From: Nitrospinales bacterium
Lineage (GTDB): Bacteria > Nitrospinota > Nitrospinia > Nitrospinales > VA-1
Assembly: GCA_965262115.1 (NCBI GenBank)
Contig: OZ253496.1
Span: forward strand, 928,001-992,000
Reading direction: 5' to 3'
Length of the DNA: 64,000 bases
Shown here piece by piece: positions 1,612 through 60,719 of this stretch. The position numbers were made by a program, and so were the translations under genes. Each line of letters begins with the position of its first letter. The stretch's first letter is position 1. The notes beneath the pieces are model-generated. The model ran no database searches. It worked only from the letters and a program-made list of their open reading frames with translations, and was not told the origin of the DNA.

Positions 1612-1793
1612 GCCCGGCCAGCGGCCGGTAGGCGTAATATTCTTCCTCATCTGTGATGTTCTCTCTTCCTTGAACTTCATGCACGGCACGGGTACTTCGT
1701 GCCCTGAAAGGGTAAACTGGCAATACCCCGTTAAGCCGAGATAAGATTTGCTCGCCAAATAAAGTTATTGCTAGTTGGCCTCACGCCCAGTGG
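1605..1793. repeat. Modular palindromic repeat copy between convergent ALDH and histidine kinase
   Basis: CCACTAAG start, CTGTGA..TTCATGC..GGGTA module, GCAATA..GCCGAGATAA..TTATTGC, and minus-strand CCACTGGGCGTGAGGCCAACTAG; similar to loci at 4135, 35536 and 54558. Confidence 0.8.
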
Positions 1794-3192
1794 CGGGGAT
1801 GCGGATTTTGAAGCGGCTGCCCACACCCAGTTTGCTCTCGACTTCGATTGTTCCTTTATGAGCTTCGACAATATGCCTGCAGATGCTGAGCCCCAAGCCA
1901 CTGCCCCCTTCATCGCGTGACCGGGCTTTATCCACCCGGTAGAACCTATCAAAGATGGATGGCAGGTTTTTTTCTGGTATTCCGATGCCAGTATCTTGTA
2001 TCGACAACAAGGCAAACCCTGCTCCCTCCTGCAGAGAAACTTTCAACTCGCCGCCCGGTTGCGTGTATTTAATCCCATTGTGCAGAACATTCCAAACCAT
2101 TTGCCGGAGCCGCACCTCATCCCCATTGATTTTCACCGGCTCCAGAAACGCAATGACGATGGAGATATCTTTTTCACCGGCCAACACTTCGGCATGTTTG
2201 CATACTTCCTCTACCAGATCTCTCAAGTCCATCGCCTTGCAGTTGAGGAGAATATGGTTTTCGTCGGACTTGGAGAGGACAAACAAGTCTTCCAGCACTT
2301 TGGACATATAGTTGATCTCTTCTAGGTTACTGGCGATCACCTCCTGGTACTCTTTCGGTTCACGAGGTTTACTCAGCACCCATTCATTTTGCCCCTGTAA
2401 AACCGTCAACGGAGTCCTCAACTCATGCGAAGCATCACTGCTGAATTGCCGCATCTGAGCGAAAGAGTTTTCCAGCCGATCCATCATTTCATTAAAGGTC
2501 AGGGCCAGCTGGCCCAACTCATCCTTGACTTTTAGCACGGGAATGCGCTGGCTCAACTCCTGCCCCTGCCCGATATACCGGGCGGTCTGAATGATTTTGG
2601 ATATAGGTTTCAAAGCACGCCGGGCCAGAAATCGAGCGAACAGCGTAGCCAGAACAAGTACCGAGGGAACGGCGGTGAACAAGAATATTCTCAGGTTCTT
2701 CAGAGTCTCCCGCACCGCCTCCAATGAAGTCCCTACCTGAACCAGGTTGACCAGTTTTTTTTCCCGAATGATAGGCATGGTGATCACCCTAATGGGGTGA
2801 TTGCCATCCACAAGAAATGTTTCGTAGGAATTTTTACCCTCAAGGGCATCGGCATAGGCAGTTTGTGATAATGAGAACTTGGAGGCATCAATATTGTTAG
2901 ATCGCGACCCAACATTGCCGGAGCCATCATAGATTCTGTAAAACTTGTTGAGATTACTAGTTCCCATGAATCGCTCGAAAAGCTGGTCAAGTCCGGGCAA
3001 TGGTGAACGGTTGAATTTCATCACTGCCGAGGTAGCAACAACGGTGGCCGAAACCGTCAAGGAATTATCGACACTTTCATAAAGACGTTTAGAAAGAAAA
3101 TAATTTAGAAAAACACTGAATAGGATGAGGATGATGCCCAGTAACAGGATATACCAGGCCGTCAACCTGGACCGAATGGATTTGAAAGCCAT
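1771..3192 (-). CDS. Sensor histidine kinase, CusS/CzcS-like (2 TM, HAMP, HisKA, HATPase)
   Basis: DASHELRTPL H-box; N, G1, F and G2 boxes (NVLHNGIKY, DTGIGI, IFDRFYR, GSGLGL). Confidence 0.93.
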   Translation of the reverse strand: MAFKSIRSRLTAWYILLLGIILILFSVFLNYFLSKRLYESVDNSLTVSATVVATSAVMKFNRSPLPGLDQLFERFMGTSNLNKFYRIYDGSGNVGSRSNNIDASKFSLSQTAYADALEGKNSYETFLVDGNHPIRVITMPIIREKKLVNLVQVGTSLEAVRETLKNLRIFLFTAVPSVLVLATLFARFLARRALKPISKIIQTARYIGQGQELSQRIPVLKVKDELGQLALTFNEMMDRLENSFAQMRQFSSDASHELRTPLTVLQGQNEWVLSKPREPKEYQEVIASNLEEINYMSKVLEDLFVLSKSDENHILLNCKAMDLRDLVEEVCKHAEVLAGEKDISIVIAFLEPVKINGDEVRLRQMVWNVLHNGIKYTQPGGELKVSLQEGAGFALLSIQDTGIGIPEKNLPSIFDRFYRVDKARSRDEGGSGLGLSICRHIVEAHKGTIEVESKLGVGSRFKIRIPATGREAN

Positions 3193-4693: not shown

Positions 4694-5434
4694 ATGCGGC
4701 TCGCAAACAAAACGGCCATCATCACCGGCGGTGGATCGGGAATAGGCCAAGCCTGTGCATGGGCTTTCTACCAGGAAGGCGCTAATGTGGTTTTATTTGG
4801 TCGAAGAGAAGACAAACTAAAAGAAACAGCCCAGGAACTAGGTTCCCGGGCCATGACGGTCCAGGGAGATATGACCCAAAGCAAAGACCTCGACCGGCTG
4901 GTCCAGGAAACCCAAAGCAAGTTCCATCGCATCGACATACTGGTCAACAATGCCGGTCTTTTCAAAGGTGCTCCTCTGCACGAAATTTCTGATGAACAGT
5001 ACGATGAAATGATGGACATCAATATGAGAGCGGTGTTCCAATTGACCCGCAAGGTGCTCCCAGTGATGATGGAACAAAAAGGTGGGAGCATCATCCATAT
5101 CAGTTCCATCCTCGGCATCATCGCCGTGCCTCAGGTGGCGGCTTATAATATTTCCAAAGGAGCCCTGATTCAACTGAGCCGGTCCATCGCTGTGGAATAC
5201 GGCAGTTATGGCATCCGCTCCAACGCCATTTGTCCCGGCCTGATAGAAACCGACATGACCGCCGACCTTATGAAGGACGAGGCGTTGATGCAGGAATGGA
5301 GTAAGGATTACCCGATAGGTCGGTTCGGAAAACCTGAGGATGTGGCCGATGCCTGCCTTTTTTTAGCCAGCGATGAATCCTCCTTTATAACCGGCACGGT
5401 TCTTCCGGTGGATGGCGGTTTCACAGCCCACTAG
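4694..5434 (+). CDS. Short-chain dehydrogenase/reductase (SDR)
   Basis: TGGGSGIG, NNAG, YNISK and DGG motifs. Confidence 0.95.
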   Translation: MRLANKTAIITGGGSGIGQACAWAFYQEGANVVLFGRREDKLKETAQELGSRAMTVQGDMTQSKDLDRLVQETQSKFHRIDILVNNAGLFKGAPLHEISDEQYDEMMDINMRAVFQLTRKVLPVMMEQKGGSIIHISSILGIIAVPQVAAYNISKGALIQLSRSIAVEYGSYGIRSNAICPGLIETDMTADLMKDEALMQEWSKDYPIGRFGKPEDVADACLFLASDESSFITGTVLPVDGGFTAH

Positions 5435-5533
5435 CCCCTTCGCAGGGGAGGCGACTAGCAATAATGTATGAGCAAGCAAAAATCTTTCTCGGCCCAATAA
5501 AACCATTAGTCATGTCCTGTGGCGGTTCGCCAC

Positions 5534-5829
5534 CCACTCGCCGTGGGGGCAAATAGCAATGGCTCATAGAGCCGAGATATAATTGATACCAGAAAACAGC
5601 CATTGCAAGTCACCGGCGGAGGTTCTCCGTCCACTCGCCGTGGGGGCAAATAGCAATGGCTCATAGAGCCGGGAGCATAATTGATACCAGAAAACAGCCA
5701 TTGCAAGTCACCGACTGAGGTTCTCCGCCCACTCGCCGTGGGGGCAAATAGCAATGGCTCATAGAGCCGGGAGCATAATTGATACCAGAAAACAGCCATT
5801 GCAAGTCACCGACTGAGGTTCTCCGCCCA
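5534..5829. repeat. Tandem array of three 97-98 bp units of the repeat family
   Basis: Units start CCACTCGCCGTGGGGGC at 5534, 5631 and 5729; units 2 and 3 are identical; a related degenerate segment lies at 5428-5533. Confidence 0.95.
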
Positions 5830-10641: not shown

Positions 10642-10742
10642 CCACTCGGCGTAGGGCCAATGAACAATAACTTTCGCTGGCAAACAATAGATTAAATCGG
10701 CTTGATGATCCGTACTACCTGCCCCCGGCGGCTCGCCGGGCC
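10642..10742. repeat. Modular palindromic repeat copy between bcp and pepP
   Basis: CCACTCGGCGTAGGGCCAATGAACAATAAC, and minus-strand GCCCGGCGAGCCGCCGG as at 41525. Confidence 0.7.
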
Positions 10743-12133
10743 ATTAATTTCTCAATCTGTTTTACAGTTCTGGGAATCTTGCTGGAAAGATTCAAACAGC
10801 CGGTTGCTGTCATCACAAGATTGTCCTCAATGCGAATGCCTATCTTTTCATCATAGTTTTTTCCGTTCAGGCGCAGACGAAACTCCCCATACAACCCGGG
10901 TTCATTGCTGATCATCCAGCCCGGCTTCATGGGGTGCTTGGCGTAATTACGAAAAGGATCCCCATCATGCTCCTGTTCCCCCATCAAGTGGCTCACCCCG
11001 TGCGGTCTTCCTTTATATTGCAACTTAACCTTTCCCCCAATCGCCTTGAAATCGCGTTCCAGCCCCTCATTGACCTTATCCCAGCATACGGTGTTCAACT
11101 CTTCAATCGTTAGCCCAGCCCGCGCCTTTTTCTCTACCGCAATATGGGCTTTAAGAACGATTTCATAAAGTATTTTCTGCATGGGGTTGAACCGCCCCGA
11201 CACAGGAAAAGTCCTAGTGATATCGGCATGCATGGTCATCCAGCGTATTCCAAAATCGATCAGCATCATTTCGCTTTTTGAAAAATTATCATCATTCTTT
11301 GTATAGTGGAGAATGGTTGCGTTAGCTCCTGATGCCACGATGGAAGGATAGCTAAGGCCAAAAGGGGTATTCATCAGCATCTGGCCTTCGAGAAACCCCT
11401 GCACCTGACATTCATTTTTAAAGTTACTGAAGTTTTTCAGCATCACCTTATATCCGCCGTTAGTTATATCTTGAGCTTTCCGGGCATTGGCAATATCATA
11501 TTTATCCAGCGGCAGGCGCAGTTCAAAATGACTCTTCATAATATTTTTCAAAGCCGCTTTTGGAGCTTTCCAAGACCGCAACCACCCCTCAAGTTTCCTT
11601 TTGAAATCAAAATTATGATCCGTGGTGATGCTAGAGACTTTGCCCCCTCGGGTGCCTTCCAGCCAAAACATTCCCAGAGTTTTTTTCTTCTGCTTCATGA
11701 ACCGCTCTTTCAGGACATCCTTAAATTCACGGATATCGCGAACATCCTGGATTCCCGTAACCGACCGCACTTCCCTCAAGCTTTGCTCATCCCCGACCCC
11801 AAAACGGACCCCCTCCAAAAACTCAAGGATTCGATCCTTGTTATCCACAAATAAAATTTCATCCGATACTTTTGAACCCGGGTCCAGCAACAGGATGACG
11901 TTATTCTGGTTAATGCCGGTTAAATACATCATTGCCGGCTCCTGATAAGTGGGGCAATAGGCATAGGACCAGGTCGTCTTTCCACCCGGACCATAAGGGA
12001 CCCCGGCAACGGCCATGAGTCGGCCTTCCTTCCCCATCAACTTCTTTCTTCTTTCGCGAAACCTCCGTTTAGCAAAGACCCCCGCCCCGCCATCCCGGAA
12101 TATTCCTGTATAAATTTTTTTCGATATCTTCAT
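10715..12133 (-). CDS. pepP: Xaa-Pro aminopeptidase (M24B)
   Basis: LHY, LIDFG, ADITRT, HGVSH..G..EHD, NEPGLY and GIRIED metal-ligand motifs. Confidence 0.88.
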   Translation of the reverse strand: MKISKKIYTGIFRDGGAGVFAKRRFRERRKKLMGKEGRLMAVAGVPYGPGGKTTWSYAYCPTYQEPAMMYLTGINQNNVILLLDPGSKVSDEILFVDNKDRILEFLEGVRFGVGDEQSLREVRSVTGIQDVRDIREFKDVLKERFMKQKKKTLGMFWLEGTRGGKVSSITTDHNFDFKRKLEGWLRSWKAPKAALKNIMKSHFELRLPLDKYDIANARKAQDITNGGYKVMLKNFSNFKNECQVQGFLEGQMLMNTPFGLSYPSIVASGANATILHYTKNDDNFSKSEMMLIDFGIRWMTMHADITRTFPVSGRFNPMQKILYEIVLKAHIAVEKKARAGLTIEELNTVCWDKVNEGLERDFKAIGGKVKLQYKGRPHGVSHLMGEQEHDGDPFRNYAKHPMKPGWMISNEPGLYGEFRLRLNGKNYDEKIGIRIEDNLVMTATGCLNLSSKIPRTVKQIEKLMARRAAGGR

Positions 12134-33345: not shown

Positions 33346-33420
33346 CCCGATAAAAGAAATTGGATAACAGCGCTTATTTGTTTTATCCTGCTTGCCCTAT
33401 TAAATAAAAAGGTGTACGGA

Positions 33421-34419
33421 ATGGAACTGGACAAGGTGATCGGGAAAATACTGGAGGGTTATCAACCGGCATGCGTGATCATGACGGCGAATGAGTTAAA
33501 ACTGTTCGACCAGCTCAAACAACCGACAGCAGCAGCACAAGTCGCAAAGACCTTGAATCTGGACCCGGAAGCCACCGAACGCCTGCTCAACGCCCTCACT
33601 TCGCTGGAAATTGTTACCAAGGAAAACCAGACCTATCACCTGCCAGAAGCCGCTCACGAATATCTCATAACAGGCGGGAGCCATTCTCTTCAGCAGTGGA
33701 TTCAGCTCTCGGCCGACCTTTATCCGGTTTGGGGCCAGCTCTCCTCTTTTATAAAATCCGGTATTCTTATTAAAAGTATCATGGAGATGCTAGGCGGTGA
33801 TCCGCATAAAATGAGGGCGTTTACCGATGCCATGCACGACAAGGCTCTCAAAGCCACCTGGCTGATCGCCCGCGAAATTCCTGTTGGGGACGCAAAAACC
33901 CTGCTGGATGTCGGCGGAGGACCAGGAACCTATTCGCTGGAATGGTGCAAACTGCACAACCATCTTAAAGCCACTGTTTTCGATATTGCACCGGTTCTGG
34001 AAGTCACAAAAACTTATATCGAATCCTATGAATTGCAGGGTCGGGTTGATGCCAAACCGGGTGATTTCCATAAAGATGATTTGGGAGACAGTCAATACGA
34101 TCTGGTGCTCATGGCTAATATCCTGCACATGTACGACGCTGATATGAGTCGAGCCCTGGTCACCAAAGCCGTGAAAGCCGTGAAACCGGGTGGCCGCATT
34201 ATCATCCACGGTTTCTGCACCAATGAAAACCAGACCGGCCCTTTGGGTGACACGCTGTTCAGCCTCAATATTGGCATGCTGACCGAAGGTGGACGGGCAC
34301 ACCCTGTTCAGGAAAAAATCGACTGGCTTAAGGGAACTGGAGTTTCCGATATTCGCCATTTCCGTATCGATGCCATCCCCACCGGAGTCGTAACCGCCAC
34401 TAGGCGTGGAGCCAACTAG
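33421..34419 (+). CDS. O-methyltransferase family 2 (dimerisation domain plus Methyltransf_2)
   Basis: FTDAMH, LLDVGGGPG, GDF and NILH; ATG at 33421. Confidence 0.88.
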   Translation: MELDKVIGKILEGYQPACVIMTANELKLFDQLKQPTAAAQVAKTLNLDPEATERLLNALTSLEIVTKENQTYHLPEAAHEYLITGGSHSLQQWIQLSADLYPVWGQLSSFIKSGILIKSIMEMLGGDPHKMRAFTDAMHDKALKATWLIAREIPVGDAKTLLDVGGGPGTYSLEWCKLHNHLKATVFDIAPVLEVTKTYIESYELQGRVDAKPGDFHKDDLGDSQYDLVLMANILHMYDADMSRALVTKAVKAVKPGGRIIIHGFCTNENQTGPLGDTLFSLNIGMLTEGGRAHPVQEKIDWLKGTGVSDIRHFRIDAIPTGVVTATRRGAN

Positions 34420-34560
34420 CAATAGCATTTACTGCAATCAAACCGTGTTGGCGGCTTAACAAGCTCTTGCTATACGCATGGGAGAAGCAGACTTTTTCTC
34501 AGACCGAGACAACCCTTGCCAGCCGATAAAACTCTTGCTAGTTGGCCCCACGCCTAGTGG
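34397..34560. repeat. Inverted pair of repeat elements overlapping both convergent stop codons
   Basis: CCACTAGGCGTGGAGCCAACTAGCAATAG at 34397 and a near-perfect reverse complement ending at 34560. Confidence 0.9.
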
Positions 34561-35452
34561 GGCAGTAGACGACTAGCACCACTCCGGTGACGGCGACCAC
34601 ACCGCCGAAATATCCCAGTGACCCGACCGGGTCGGCTTGCAGTCCGGCAAAACCGATGTCGGGAAGAATCTTCATACCCCAAAGGGTTATCAATGGATTT
34701 AAGGAAATGATGACGCTGATCAGGGCCAGGGGAATATATTTCACAGCTTCGGCGAGAGTGCCATAAGCGAGCAGCGTGTTGAACCCGCAAAAGATCAGCG
34801 ACAACCAAGCCGTGAGTCCTGCCCGGGTAAAGTCGGCCCACTCAACGCCACCTATCAACGTAAATGTGGCCACGGCGTAAACGAGCAGGTTTAAAGACTG
34901 GGCTCCATATTGCCGACTGAGGAATTTTTGTGAGACCATATATCCCACCCACACCAGACCAGCAAGAACAATTAAAAAGTCCGCGTAGTAATAAGCTCCC
35001 GGATCCTGAATTAGGCTTTGTTGGTCATGAAAAAACAGGAACAAGCCGCTTGCCGCAATCACCATTCCCAGAACCTGCCTTAAAGCCAGACGTTCATGAA
35101 AAACAAAAACTCCAGCCAACACCAGAAACACCGAAGCGGTCTGTATCAGAACCGCCATATTGGAGGGTCCGCTCAAGTCCACCCCCAAGGTCACCCAATA
35201 ATAATTTGCTGCAAGACAGGCCCCTCCCAGAATTCCCATCCACGGGGGTTTGCGAAGGATGTTCAGAGGTTGATGCGCTTTCAATTGCAGGATGACGGTC
35301 AGGATCAAAAATGCAAACAGGAAGCGGAACCAGGAAATCGTTCCGGCATGAAAACCCTGCAGGGCGATTTTCAAAAAAATGGGTAATACACCCCAAAGCA
35401 GTGCGGTGGCAAGGGACAACAAAATGCCACGAAAGTAATGGACAAGAGCCAC
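34538..35452 (-). CDS. EamA/DMT family transporter
   Basis: About 10 TM; LLWG, RF, ERL and NPL motifs. Confidence 0.9.
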   Translation of the reverse strand: MALVHYFRGILLSLATALLWGVLPIFLKIALQGFHAGTISWFRFLFAFLILTVILQLKAHQPLNILRKPPWMGILGGACLAANYYWVTLGVDLSGPSNMAVLIQTASVFLVLAGVFVFHERLALRQVLGMVIAASGLFLFFHDQQSLIQDPGAYYYADFLIVLAGLVWVGYMVSQKFLSRQYGAQSLNLLVYAVATFTLIGGVEWADFTRAGLTAWLSLIFCGFNTLLAYGTLAEAVKYIPLALISVIISLNPLITLWGMKILPDIGFAGLQADPVGSLGYFGGVVAVTGVVLVVYCPTRRGAN

Positions 35453-35535
35453 TAAGCACCCCTTGACAGAGGAGTCAGATAGCCGTGATATTCTTCCTTA
35501 GCCTCCGTGCCCCAAATGGGTAAATGGCGGGTTAG

Positions 35536-35636
35536 GCCGAGATAGATCGTTGCTCGCCGCACCAGGCTATTGCTCATTATACCCCTTCGGAGCATGAAAT
35601 TTGCGGAGGGAGAATATCACAGCCTCACGCTTAGTG
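35536..35636 (-). repeat. Modular palindromic repeat copy downstream of hisH
   Basis: Minus strand reads CACTAAGCGTGAGGCTGTG..AAATTTCATGCTCCGAAGGGGTATAATGAGCAATAG..TCTCGGC. Confidence 0.85.
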
Positions 35637-41514: not shown

Positions 41515-41635
41515 CCCACTCGGCGCCCGGCGAGCCGCCGGAGGGAGGGGAGAACTAGCAACGACTTCATTGAACCGAGATAACCCTTTGTTAGCATGAT
41601 AAAGCTATTGCCAACTCGCCCCACGCAGAGGGGCC
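41509..41635. repeat. Modular palindromic repeat between convergent nhaD and comF
   Basis: CACTAG-CCCACTCGGCG-CCCGGCGAGCCGCCGG..CTAGCAA..CCGAGATAA..CTATTGC..GCCCCACGCAGAGGGG. Confidence 0.8.
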
Positions 41636-42399
41636 CCTTTCCCCACCACCACTCTTCCCAGAGTGAACACATAAACCTTCCCGGCTCCATTTTTCTTTAA
41701 TATCTTTGCGGCCTCATCAACCGTTGCTCCAGTTGTGAACACGTCGTCCACCAACAGAATATTTTTTTTCACGACCAGTTCGGGACGATTGATCTCAAAG
41801 GCTCCTTTAATGTTATGAGCTCTTTCTACACGGGTCATGGTCGCTTGCGGATTGGTGGCCTTGACCCGCCGCAACAATCCACCTTCAAGAGGTAGTTTTA
41901 AAATCCTCGCAACTTGCCGGGCAATAAGAAAAGCCTGGTCAAACCCCCTCTCCTTCATTTTGTTGAAATGTAACAGCACCGGAGAAACGGTAAAATCCTG
42001 ACAAAAACCCGGGTTCTCCTCAAAATATTTTTCCAGAAGGCGGTCTATTTCTGGGAGCACCCCCATCTGCCTGCGATATTTGAAATGGTGAATGGTTGTT
42101 CTTAAAACCGTGTCATAAAATCCCATGCTTCTGGCCTGATCAAATTGATAAGGGCTTTGTCGGCAAACCCCGCACACAAACTCTTCATGCGGATAGGCAT
42201 AAGACAGGTCCGCCGACACCCCGCACTGAAAACAATACGGCTGTCGAATAAACCCGATATCATTCCTACAGCTGGGACAGAGGAAATACTCCTGGATTTT
42301 GCCATCACAGGAAATACAGTTCTGCGGAAACACAAAATCCAAAACCTTTCTGAACCCGCGCAAAACCCCAGCGACAATTTTTTCCGATCCAACCTGCAT
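41605..42399 (-). CDS. comF: ComF family protein (double Zn ribbon plus PRTase)
   Basis: Four CxxC motifs, ERGFDQA and LLVDDVFTTGAT. Confidence 0.88.
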   Translation of the reverse strand: MQVGSEKIVAGVLRGFRKVLDFVFPQNCISCDGKIQEYFLCPSCRNDIGFIRQPYCFQCGVSADLSYAYPHEEFVCGVCRQSPYQFDQARSMGFYDTVLRTTIHHFKYRRQMGVLPEIDRLLEKYFEENPGFCQDFTVSPVLLHFNKMKERGFDQAFLIARQVARILKLPLEGGLLRRVKATNPQATMTRVERAHNIKGAFEINRPELVVKKNILLVDDVFTTGATVDEAAKILKKNGAGKVYVFTLGRVVVGKGAPLRGASWQ

Positions 42400-60565: not shown

Positions 60566-60719
60566 ACGGAGAACCTCCGCTGGCAAGTGCAATATCCTTA
60601 CCCTGCGAACAAACATTCTCTCGGCTCAATGAGCCATTGAATGAGCAAAGCCTTTTAAAGCTGAGATAAACTTTTGCCAGCCCAATAAAACTATTGCATG
60701 CTGGCCCCACGCCTAGTGG
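60566..60719 (-). repeat. Modular palindromic repeat between nuoD and nuoE
   Basis: Minus strand reads CCACTAGGCGTGGGGC..GCAATAG..TCTCAGC, then CAATGGCTCATTGAGCCGAGA..TTGC..GCGGAGGTTCTCCGT, matching the tandem unit at 5534. Confidence 0.85.

Follow-up and report, generated by a model that had tools for sequence, protein, structure and literature searches.

Genes that end within a repeat

Within the 64-kb window (the whole stretch of DNA analysed), a convergent pair of genes encoding an O-methyltransferase and an EamA transporter end inside inverted copies of one 23-nucleotide sequence (Table 1). Both copies [34397–34419 (+) and 34538–34560 (−)] are exact, and the reading frames end TATRRGAN* and CPTRRGAN*, in agreement with the original prediction. 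Two inexact copies lie at 1771–1793 (−; 2 mismatches), where a histidine kinase ends PATGREAN* as predicted, and at 60697–60719 (−; 3 mismatches); none was expected from 100 shuffles of the sequence. ComF (PLRGASWQ*) and PepP (MARRAAGGR*), also predicted to terminate within repeat modules, do so, with PepP ending in another hairpin variant of the repeat unit. Pfam and NCBIfam matches back the O-methyltransferase, EamA, histidine kinase, ComF-like and Xaa-Pro aminopeptidase-like (PepP) assignments, the NCBIfam matches of ComF and PepP lying under the curated cut-offs. The aldehyde dehydrogenase gene at 94–1611 likewise ends at a hairpin end. The window gave no Rfam match at gathering score.

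A contig from another study is identical to window positions 34436–34596, and a contig from a related organism aligns to the window as far as 34396 and is dissimilar beyond; the repeat junction between the O-methyltransferase and EamA genes is therefore both real and variable. As single-stranded DNA, 34405–34552 folds with a z-score of −4.8. The related genome G013 departs from the window inside this repeat (match to window 34517) and has EamA located elsewhere, which marks the repeat as a rearrangement breakpoint. The same break is present in a sequencing-run contig.

Table 1. Repeat units, repeat ends and the genes they close. Positions are those of the window, except in the last two rows (source genome, G000:C1).
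Feature	Position	Strand	Remarks
Unit writing the histidine-kinase tail TGREAN*	1700..1793	−	Kinase gene 1771–3192 (−), ends PATGREAN*; empty site in G004 and G018
Repeat end, then tandem array of the unit (97–98 bp)	5435..5826	.	End flush with the stop of gene 4694–5434
Complete 98-bp unit between peroxiredoxin and PepP	10642..10739	.	Peroxiredoxin stop 5 nt off
PepP gene	10715–12133	−	Tail RRAAGGR* from the 98-bp unit 10642..10739
O-methyltransferase gene	33412..34419	+	Last 6 codons and TAG inside repeat end
Type A repeat end	34397..34426	+	13-nt hairpin 34397–34409 and 17-nt arm; TAG 34417–34419
First unit of the O-methyltransferase/EamA pair, end and core	34397..34480	+	Far hairpin missing; boundary approximate (sequence versus unit profile)
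Second unit, tail to tail with the first	34481..34560	−	Hairpin 34548–34560, TAG 34538–34540; inner boundary approximate
EamA transporter gene	34538..35452	−	Last 6 codons and TAG inside repeat end
Repeat occupying the entire NhaD–ComF gap	41515..41633	.	ComF gene 41605–42399 (−), tail APLRGASWQ*
Type A end at the complex I 49-kDa subunit gene	60690..60719	−	Begins at the base after that gene's TAA
tRNA genes with a flush end	780607, 793976, 1393187, 1476005, 1476219, 1478029, 1480128, 1508383, 1812614
tmRNA gene with a flush end	1401955

Anatomy and distribution of the unit

The 23-mer belongs to a 95–102 bp unit capped by a hairpin on both sides, of which it forms one end. A profile search of the 2.68-Mb genome found 284 such ends (type A; score at least 16), compared with 2 matches at a score of at least 14 in the reversed genome. 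Three more hairpin types have the 17-nt arm in common with type A, and all end types combined give 612 ends. A structure-based end detector returned 176 and 157 ends on the two strands and 11 on the reversed control. Each end consists of a 13–15 nt hairpin followed by an arm with stops ~23–25 and ~29–31 nt from the outer edge, and one frame of the arm reads TRRGAN or TRRGANEQ (stops at +23 and +29). Inward-facing pairs of ends show a sharp spacing peak at 98 bp (92–104 bp in 85 of 139 pairs), and the unit also forms tandem arrays whose period equals the pair spacing.

Compensated changes were found at stem positions 2 and 3 (52 of 66 and 54 of 73 copies, respectively) and less often at positions 1 and 4 (6 of 18 and 3 of 15). 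The stem thus covaries, which indicates that structure, not peptide, is conserved. RNAalifold recovered the terminal hairpin alone from unit alignments, and folding of 60 of the 85 units gave a median z-score of −1.5 for whole units and −0.5 without the terminal hairpins.

Of 120 genomes of the phylum, 54 contain exact type A matches; all 54 belong to the order and carry 1 to 211 copies each, and inside one genus the count runs from 0 to about 200. For a 27-nt form of the end in a named genome collection, 79 of 80 loci were Nitrospina-type among the matches listed (80 of 94). The repeat pattern was not found in viral contigs. Unit orientation showed no replichore bias (60 of 114 leading, p = 0.64). 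Repeat density in the source genome (G000) is greater from 0.8 to 2.6 Mb, and in two genomes of other families the listed type A copies concentrate in one chromosome part (G025:C1, 1.41–2.23 Mb; G040:C13, 2.08–2.83 Mb).

Junctions with stop codons and tRNA ends

Genes were called with a custom dicodon model (2570 calls), and the 2104 calls with a score of at least 20 and a length of at least 240 nt were used for counts. An end of some type lies at the stop of 178 of the 2104 genes (8.5%), a lower bound since some end variants are missed, and in 101 the repeat furnishes the stop. Same-strand stops peak at discrete positions relative to the type A end: −3 (11 genes), −1 (7), 0 (17), +7 (31), +23 (9) and +29 (10); no opposite-strand stop falls between −34 and +36. 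Forty-one of the 284 type A ends begin 0–5 nt past a same-strand stop, where random placement in non-coding DNA gives 2.3 (maximum 6 in 300 runs). Among the 247 ends that have a stop as neighbour, 178 overlap it or come within 6 nt, and a further 20 are 7–60 nt away; ends that neighbour gene starts do so at spread-out distances. A junction set from other genomes (80 loci, of which 76 were left after short flanks and duplicates had been dropped) shows identical peaks, with 46 of the 76 distinct copies at −6 to +29 and 4 matches in the reversed control.

Overlaps between repeat and gene use the immediate-stop frame in 33 cases, the TRRGAN frame in 21 and a long frame in 5. The stop variant is present in 31 of the 33 immediate-stop copies versus 82 of 182 copies distant from gene ends, and this bias in frame and stop variant is what selection for short tails would produce. 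Genes that the repeat abuts end in CTAA or CTAG in 24 of 43 cases versus 322 of 2104 overall, some of these CTAG stops deriving from older nested copies, and their stops are biased against TGA. The G006 orthologues of abutted genes end in CTAA or CTAG in 24 of 51 cases versus 119 of 929. Copies distant from gene ends show a weak upstream preference and no CTAR excess; the target rule is therefore loose. No U-tract follows the hairpin in any of the 178 cases, so the repeat hairpin is not an intrinsic terminator.

Repeat ends also adjoin stable RNA genes. In 10 of 47 tRNA/tmRNA genes an end begins at the base after CCA (offset 0; Table 1), and in 2 at offsets 1–15. Because no peptide is made at tRNA CCA ends, a peptide cannot be the reason for flush junctions there. 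A tRNA-Glu gene without an encoded CCA in G013 and G006 gained none at the junction. Like junctions, one base earlier, were seen at tRNA-Glu and tRNA-Met.

Origin and turnover of the tails

Alignment of orthologues showed that the tails are derived, not ancestral, and that they differ between species. As proposed, the repeat runs into the 3' ends of coding sequences and provides their final codons and stop, mostly by replacing ancestral residues and not by appending alone. Among 14 genus relatives of the O-methyltransferase, two end in TRRGAN, two in TRRGAS forms and ten in other tails, many of which come from other end types joined near the same base; five outgroup proteins end 4–5 residues past a conserved VVT-like motif. 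For EamA, exact TRRGAN was found in 1 of 10 genus relatives and related tails in 3. None of 23 relatives of the histidine kinase ends in TGREAN: in G004 and G018, which have no repeat there, the gene overlaps its convergent neighbour, and other relatives carry about one or two units at the site. The ComF tail is likewise found in 0 of 25 relatives; among genus relatives 15 of 16 have a GKGSGL-like tail and 12 of 16 a terminator-like hairpin (judged by eye), and in G000 the repeat substitutes for three codons and the spacer. The PepP tail is common to 2 of 16 genus relatives, and in G006 the peroxiredoxin and PepP stops overlap by 4 nt. Of 42 long-tail proteins set against their G006 counterparts, 28 are longer, 12 shorter and 2 equal in length.

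No end was detected in G006 at 76 + 24 of 120 G000 junctions, G006 being an imperfect ancestor since it bears copies itself. The relatives' DNA compared comprised 0.8 Mb of G013, 1.6 Mb of G006 and small loci, and empty sites are few because of this restricted coverage. They include near-clean gains of 93–101 bp with 0–5 nt ambiguity, one clean gain five codons ahead of a stop with the old end kept, and a 150-bp gain immediately after a TAA. Other sites have lost 20–50 bp, and one convergent pair lost ~50 bp including both old stops. With clean insertions and losses both seen, the data do not cleanly distinguish targeted insertion from insertion with later deletion.

The original prediction also held that unrelated proteins share a C-terminal peptide tag. 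This was not supported by a search of the proteome: T(R/G)R(G/E)AN ends 3 of 2570 called proteins, all of them in the window, and the 58 genes with at least five repeat-encoded codons, a few of which may have false ends, spell 51 different peptides.

Comparison with known repeat systems

By the REPIN definition of three sources (PMC3116915; PMC2817692; 10.1101/2021.07.10.451892), two inverted hairpin-bearing ends lie ~100 bp apart, as do those of the 85 pairs described above. The likeness to RAYT-mobilised REPINs, REP doublets and BIMEs, as described there (PMC3116915; 10.1101/2021.07.10.451892), includes a length of ~100 bp, a less conserved spacer, tandem arrays, extragenic location and hundreds of diverged copies. 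Unlike REPINs, the Nitrospina-type repeat has no RAYT in the genome or beside the ends in the phylum loci examined, uses at least four interchangeable hairpin types, and forms base-exact junctions with stops and tRNA CCA ends. GTAG/CGTC-tagged REPs lie near ORF 3' ends, and their termini often give a TAG stop (PMC3733652). The Nitrospina-type repeat also adjoins ORF 3' ends and furnishes stops, but its hairpin foot carries neither tag (0 of 284) and the stop comes from the loop or arm.

Enterobacterial RU-1/ERIC-type MITEs are described as removing the normal stop and lengthening the C-terminus with residues missing from orthologues (PMC2759123; review, PMC3184786). The Nitrospina-type repeat similarly removes stops and adds C-terminal residues, and it has the terminal inverted repeats of a MITE; these are imperfect 30–33 bp ends with a common arm, hairpin-capped in contrast to the plain terminal inverted repeats of RU-1/ERIC-type elements. 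No target-site duplication was found in 77 of 85 units, and the 0–5 nt ambiguity of empty sites compares with 9–13 nt for a separate MITE (see below). Rickettsia palindromic elements, to which the repeat had been likened, are also palindromic repeats that add protein sequence; they insert in frame inside genes (PMC3733652), whereas the Nitrospina-type repeat overlaps genes at their last codons and has 9 of its 284 copies deep within called genes, so the likeness is not borne out. The repeat works like a REPIN or a small MITE, yet it departs from the known systems with respect to RAYT, the GTAG/CGTC tags, target duplication, attC cores and insertion within genes. A listing-level search of papers available without subscription found no published work that deals with Nitrospina repeats, this repeat family or repeats directly adjoining tRNA CCA. 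Hundreds of copies have exact gene-end junctions, and no RAYT was found.

Candidate mobilisers

No Y1/RAYT gene (PF01797) was found in the source genome (93.9% complete). Y1 genes are present in 37 of 120 phylum genomes, and repeat ends lie beside 0 of the 20 Y1 loci examined. The Y1 HUH proteins at L232, L235 and L236 (~325 aa) are patchy in the phylum and have none of these ends nearby. No integron integrase scored over the TIGR02249 cut-off (best, 100.7 bits versus 265). A 261-aa tyrosine recombinase (G000:C1 2164612–2165397) gives a partial, below-cut-off integron-integrase match. Tyrosine recombinases (three intact ORFs and one fragment) were set aside, their link to the unit consisting of ordinary ends at two of their stops, as was a single weak reverse transcriptase match interrupted by stops. 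The inspected GIY-YIG (2 of 7) and DUF559 (5 of 9) matches are flanked by other palindromes. DUF559 nuclease genes with their own purine-pyrimidine palindromes lie at G000:C1 2140509, 1034378, 377385, 735444 and 660936. IS110 elements (32 matches) have a different 40-bp repeat as their insertion target. Contigs from four sequencing runs contained no excision joint, a result that is not diagnostic.

Interpretation and alternatives

We consider it probable that the 23-mer is the end of a dispersed, hairpin-capped 95–102 bp repeat flush with stops and tRNA CCA ends, that this repeat is a non-autonomous mobile element, and that the tails result from neutral read-through into its arm. On this view TRRGAN is likely to be no functional tag but a neutral side effect of a mobile repeat. 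Some enzyme would act on the hairpin ends of the unit, and joining would favour short sequences (CTAA/CTAG, CCA/CCG) similar to the end itself; CTAA/CTAG and CCA resemble its first bases. Joining may be clean at some sites and accompanied by loss of the old spacer at others, and selection would retain just those overlaps whose frame reaches a stop within ~10 codons. A mobiliser that is not a RAYT, a DDE transposase or an integron integrase, joining a 98-bp element base-exactly to the boundaries of functional RNA ends and continually rewriting the C-termini of ~5% of host proteins, is a speculative idea to which we give little credence. The repeat offers a measurable case of a small element rewriting protein C-termini species by species, and it carries a warning that shared tails in these proteomes derive from the repeat.

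The repeat might instead be retained at gene ends for a job at the RNA level, such as protecting the 3' ends of mRNAs or slowing ribosomes at termination, as E. coli REPs close to stops reportedly do, with the tails incidental. The hairpin is always on the sense strand at the stop, its stem covaries, and ribosome stalling is reported for REPs that lie no more than 15 nt from a stop (PMC12306157, citing Liang 2015). Retention of this kind, although compatible with a mobile repeat, is unlikely given how often an end is missing at the orthologous gene in G006, the range of type A counts within one genus, the lack of a U-tract and hence of an intrinsic terminator, and the position of the hairpin upstream of the stop in tail cases. 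Pure erosion, whereby units land anywhere between genes and hairpin-stimulated deletions trim the spacer to a functional boundary with no target preference, would account for the convergent pair short of ~50 bp and for the absence from G000 of the terminator-like hairpin of ComF relatives, and stops and CCA ends are both boundaries under selection. We regard it as quite unlikely: it does not predict clean insertions in last codons with the old end retained, the bias to CTAA/CTAG and against TGA, or tRNA junctions that fall exactly after CCA even though genes without encoded CCA exist in the genome.

Tails acting as degrons would amount to a novel regulatory device, but the evidence speaks against this. 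In the source genome 19 type A genes with stops at +23/+29 have tails related to TRRGAN, as do 14 of 76 copies elsewhere, and the tails are exposed at the C-terminus. None of the 58 long tails ends in Ala-Ala, unlike the host tmRNA tag (ANDYDVAVAA), they spell 51 peptides, tails turn over between species, and tail copies show no codon-position signature (mismatches 8/105, 7/84 and 7/63, a small sample). In E. coli only some 1% of random pentapeptides behave as degrons, the strong ones being ssrA-like (10.1101/2024.01.29.576913). A degron role of the tail is therefore unlikely, and addition of a functional C-terminal tag of any kind is very improbable. Base-exact junctions at mature tRNA ends would be explained by joining at the RNA level, through ligation or template switching onto RNA 3' ends, with subsequent copying back into the chromosome. 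The tRNA-Glu gene that gained no CCA and the interrupted reverse transcriptase make this highly unlikely. It is also at odds with mRNAs, which normally do not end at the stop codon. A further proposal, that the units are attC-like integron recombination sites, fits their ~100 bp size, imperfect palindromy and stop overlap. It is largely refuted: attC sites have the cores RYYYAAC and GTTRRRY, which occur together in 0 of 85 units, no integrase exceeds the cut-off, the median fold z-score is −0.5 once the terminal hairpins are removed, and the units are flanked by housekeeping genes whose order is conserved.

Other repeats

The source genome contains a separate MITE-like family (97–177 bp) with terminal inverted repeats and 8–13 bp target duplications; it is present near G000:C1 254325 and 503339 and at L103, L112 and L129 (G013), and comparison of G000 with G013 shows clean empty sites. 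The highest 14-mer counts of G000:C1 belong to long CA-dinucleotide and poly-C runs, possibly assembly artefacts. A 40-bp mini-repeat has copies at window positions 1612–1700 and 35482–35610, and some copies are nested within the 98-bp unit. About 15 near-identical IS110-family copies lie in the hairpin of this mini-repeat (G000:C1 120523, 132195, 189861, 658371 and others) and represent a repeat-targeting IS110.
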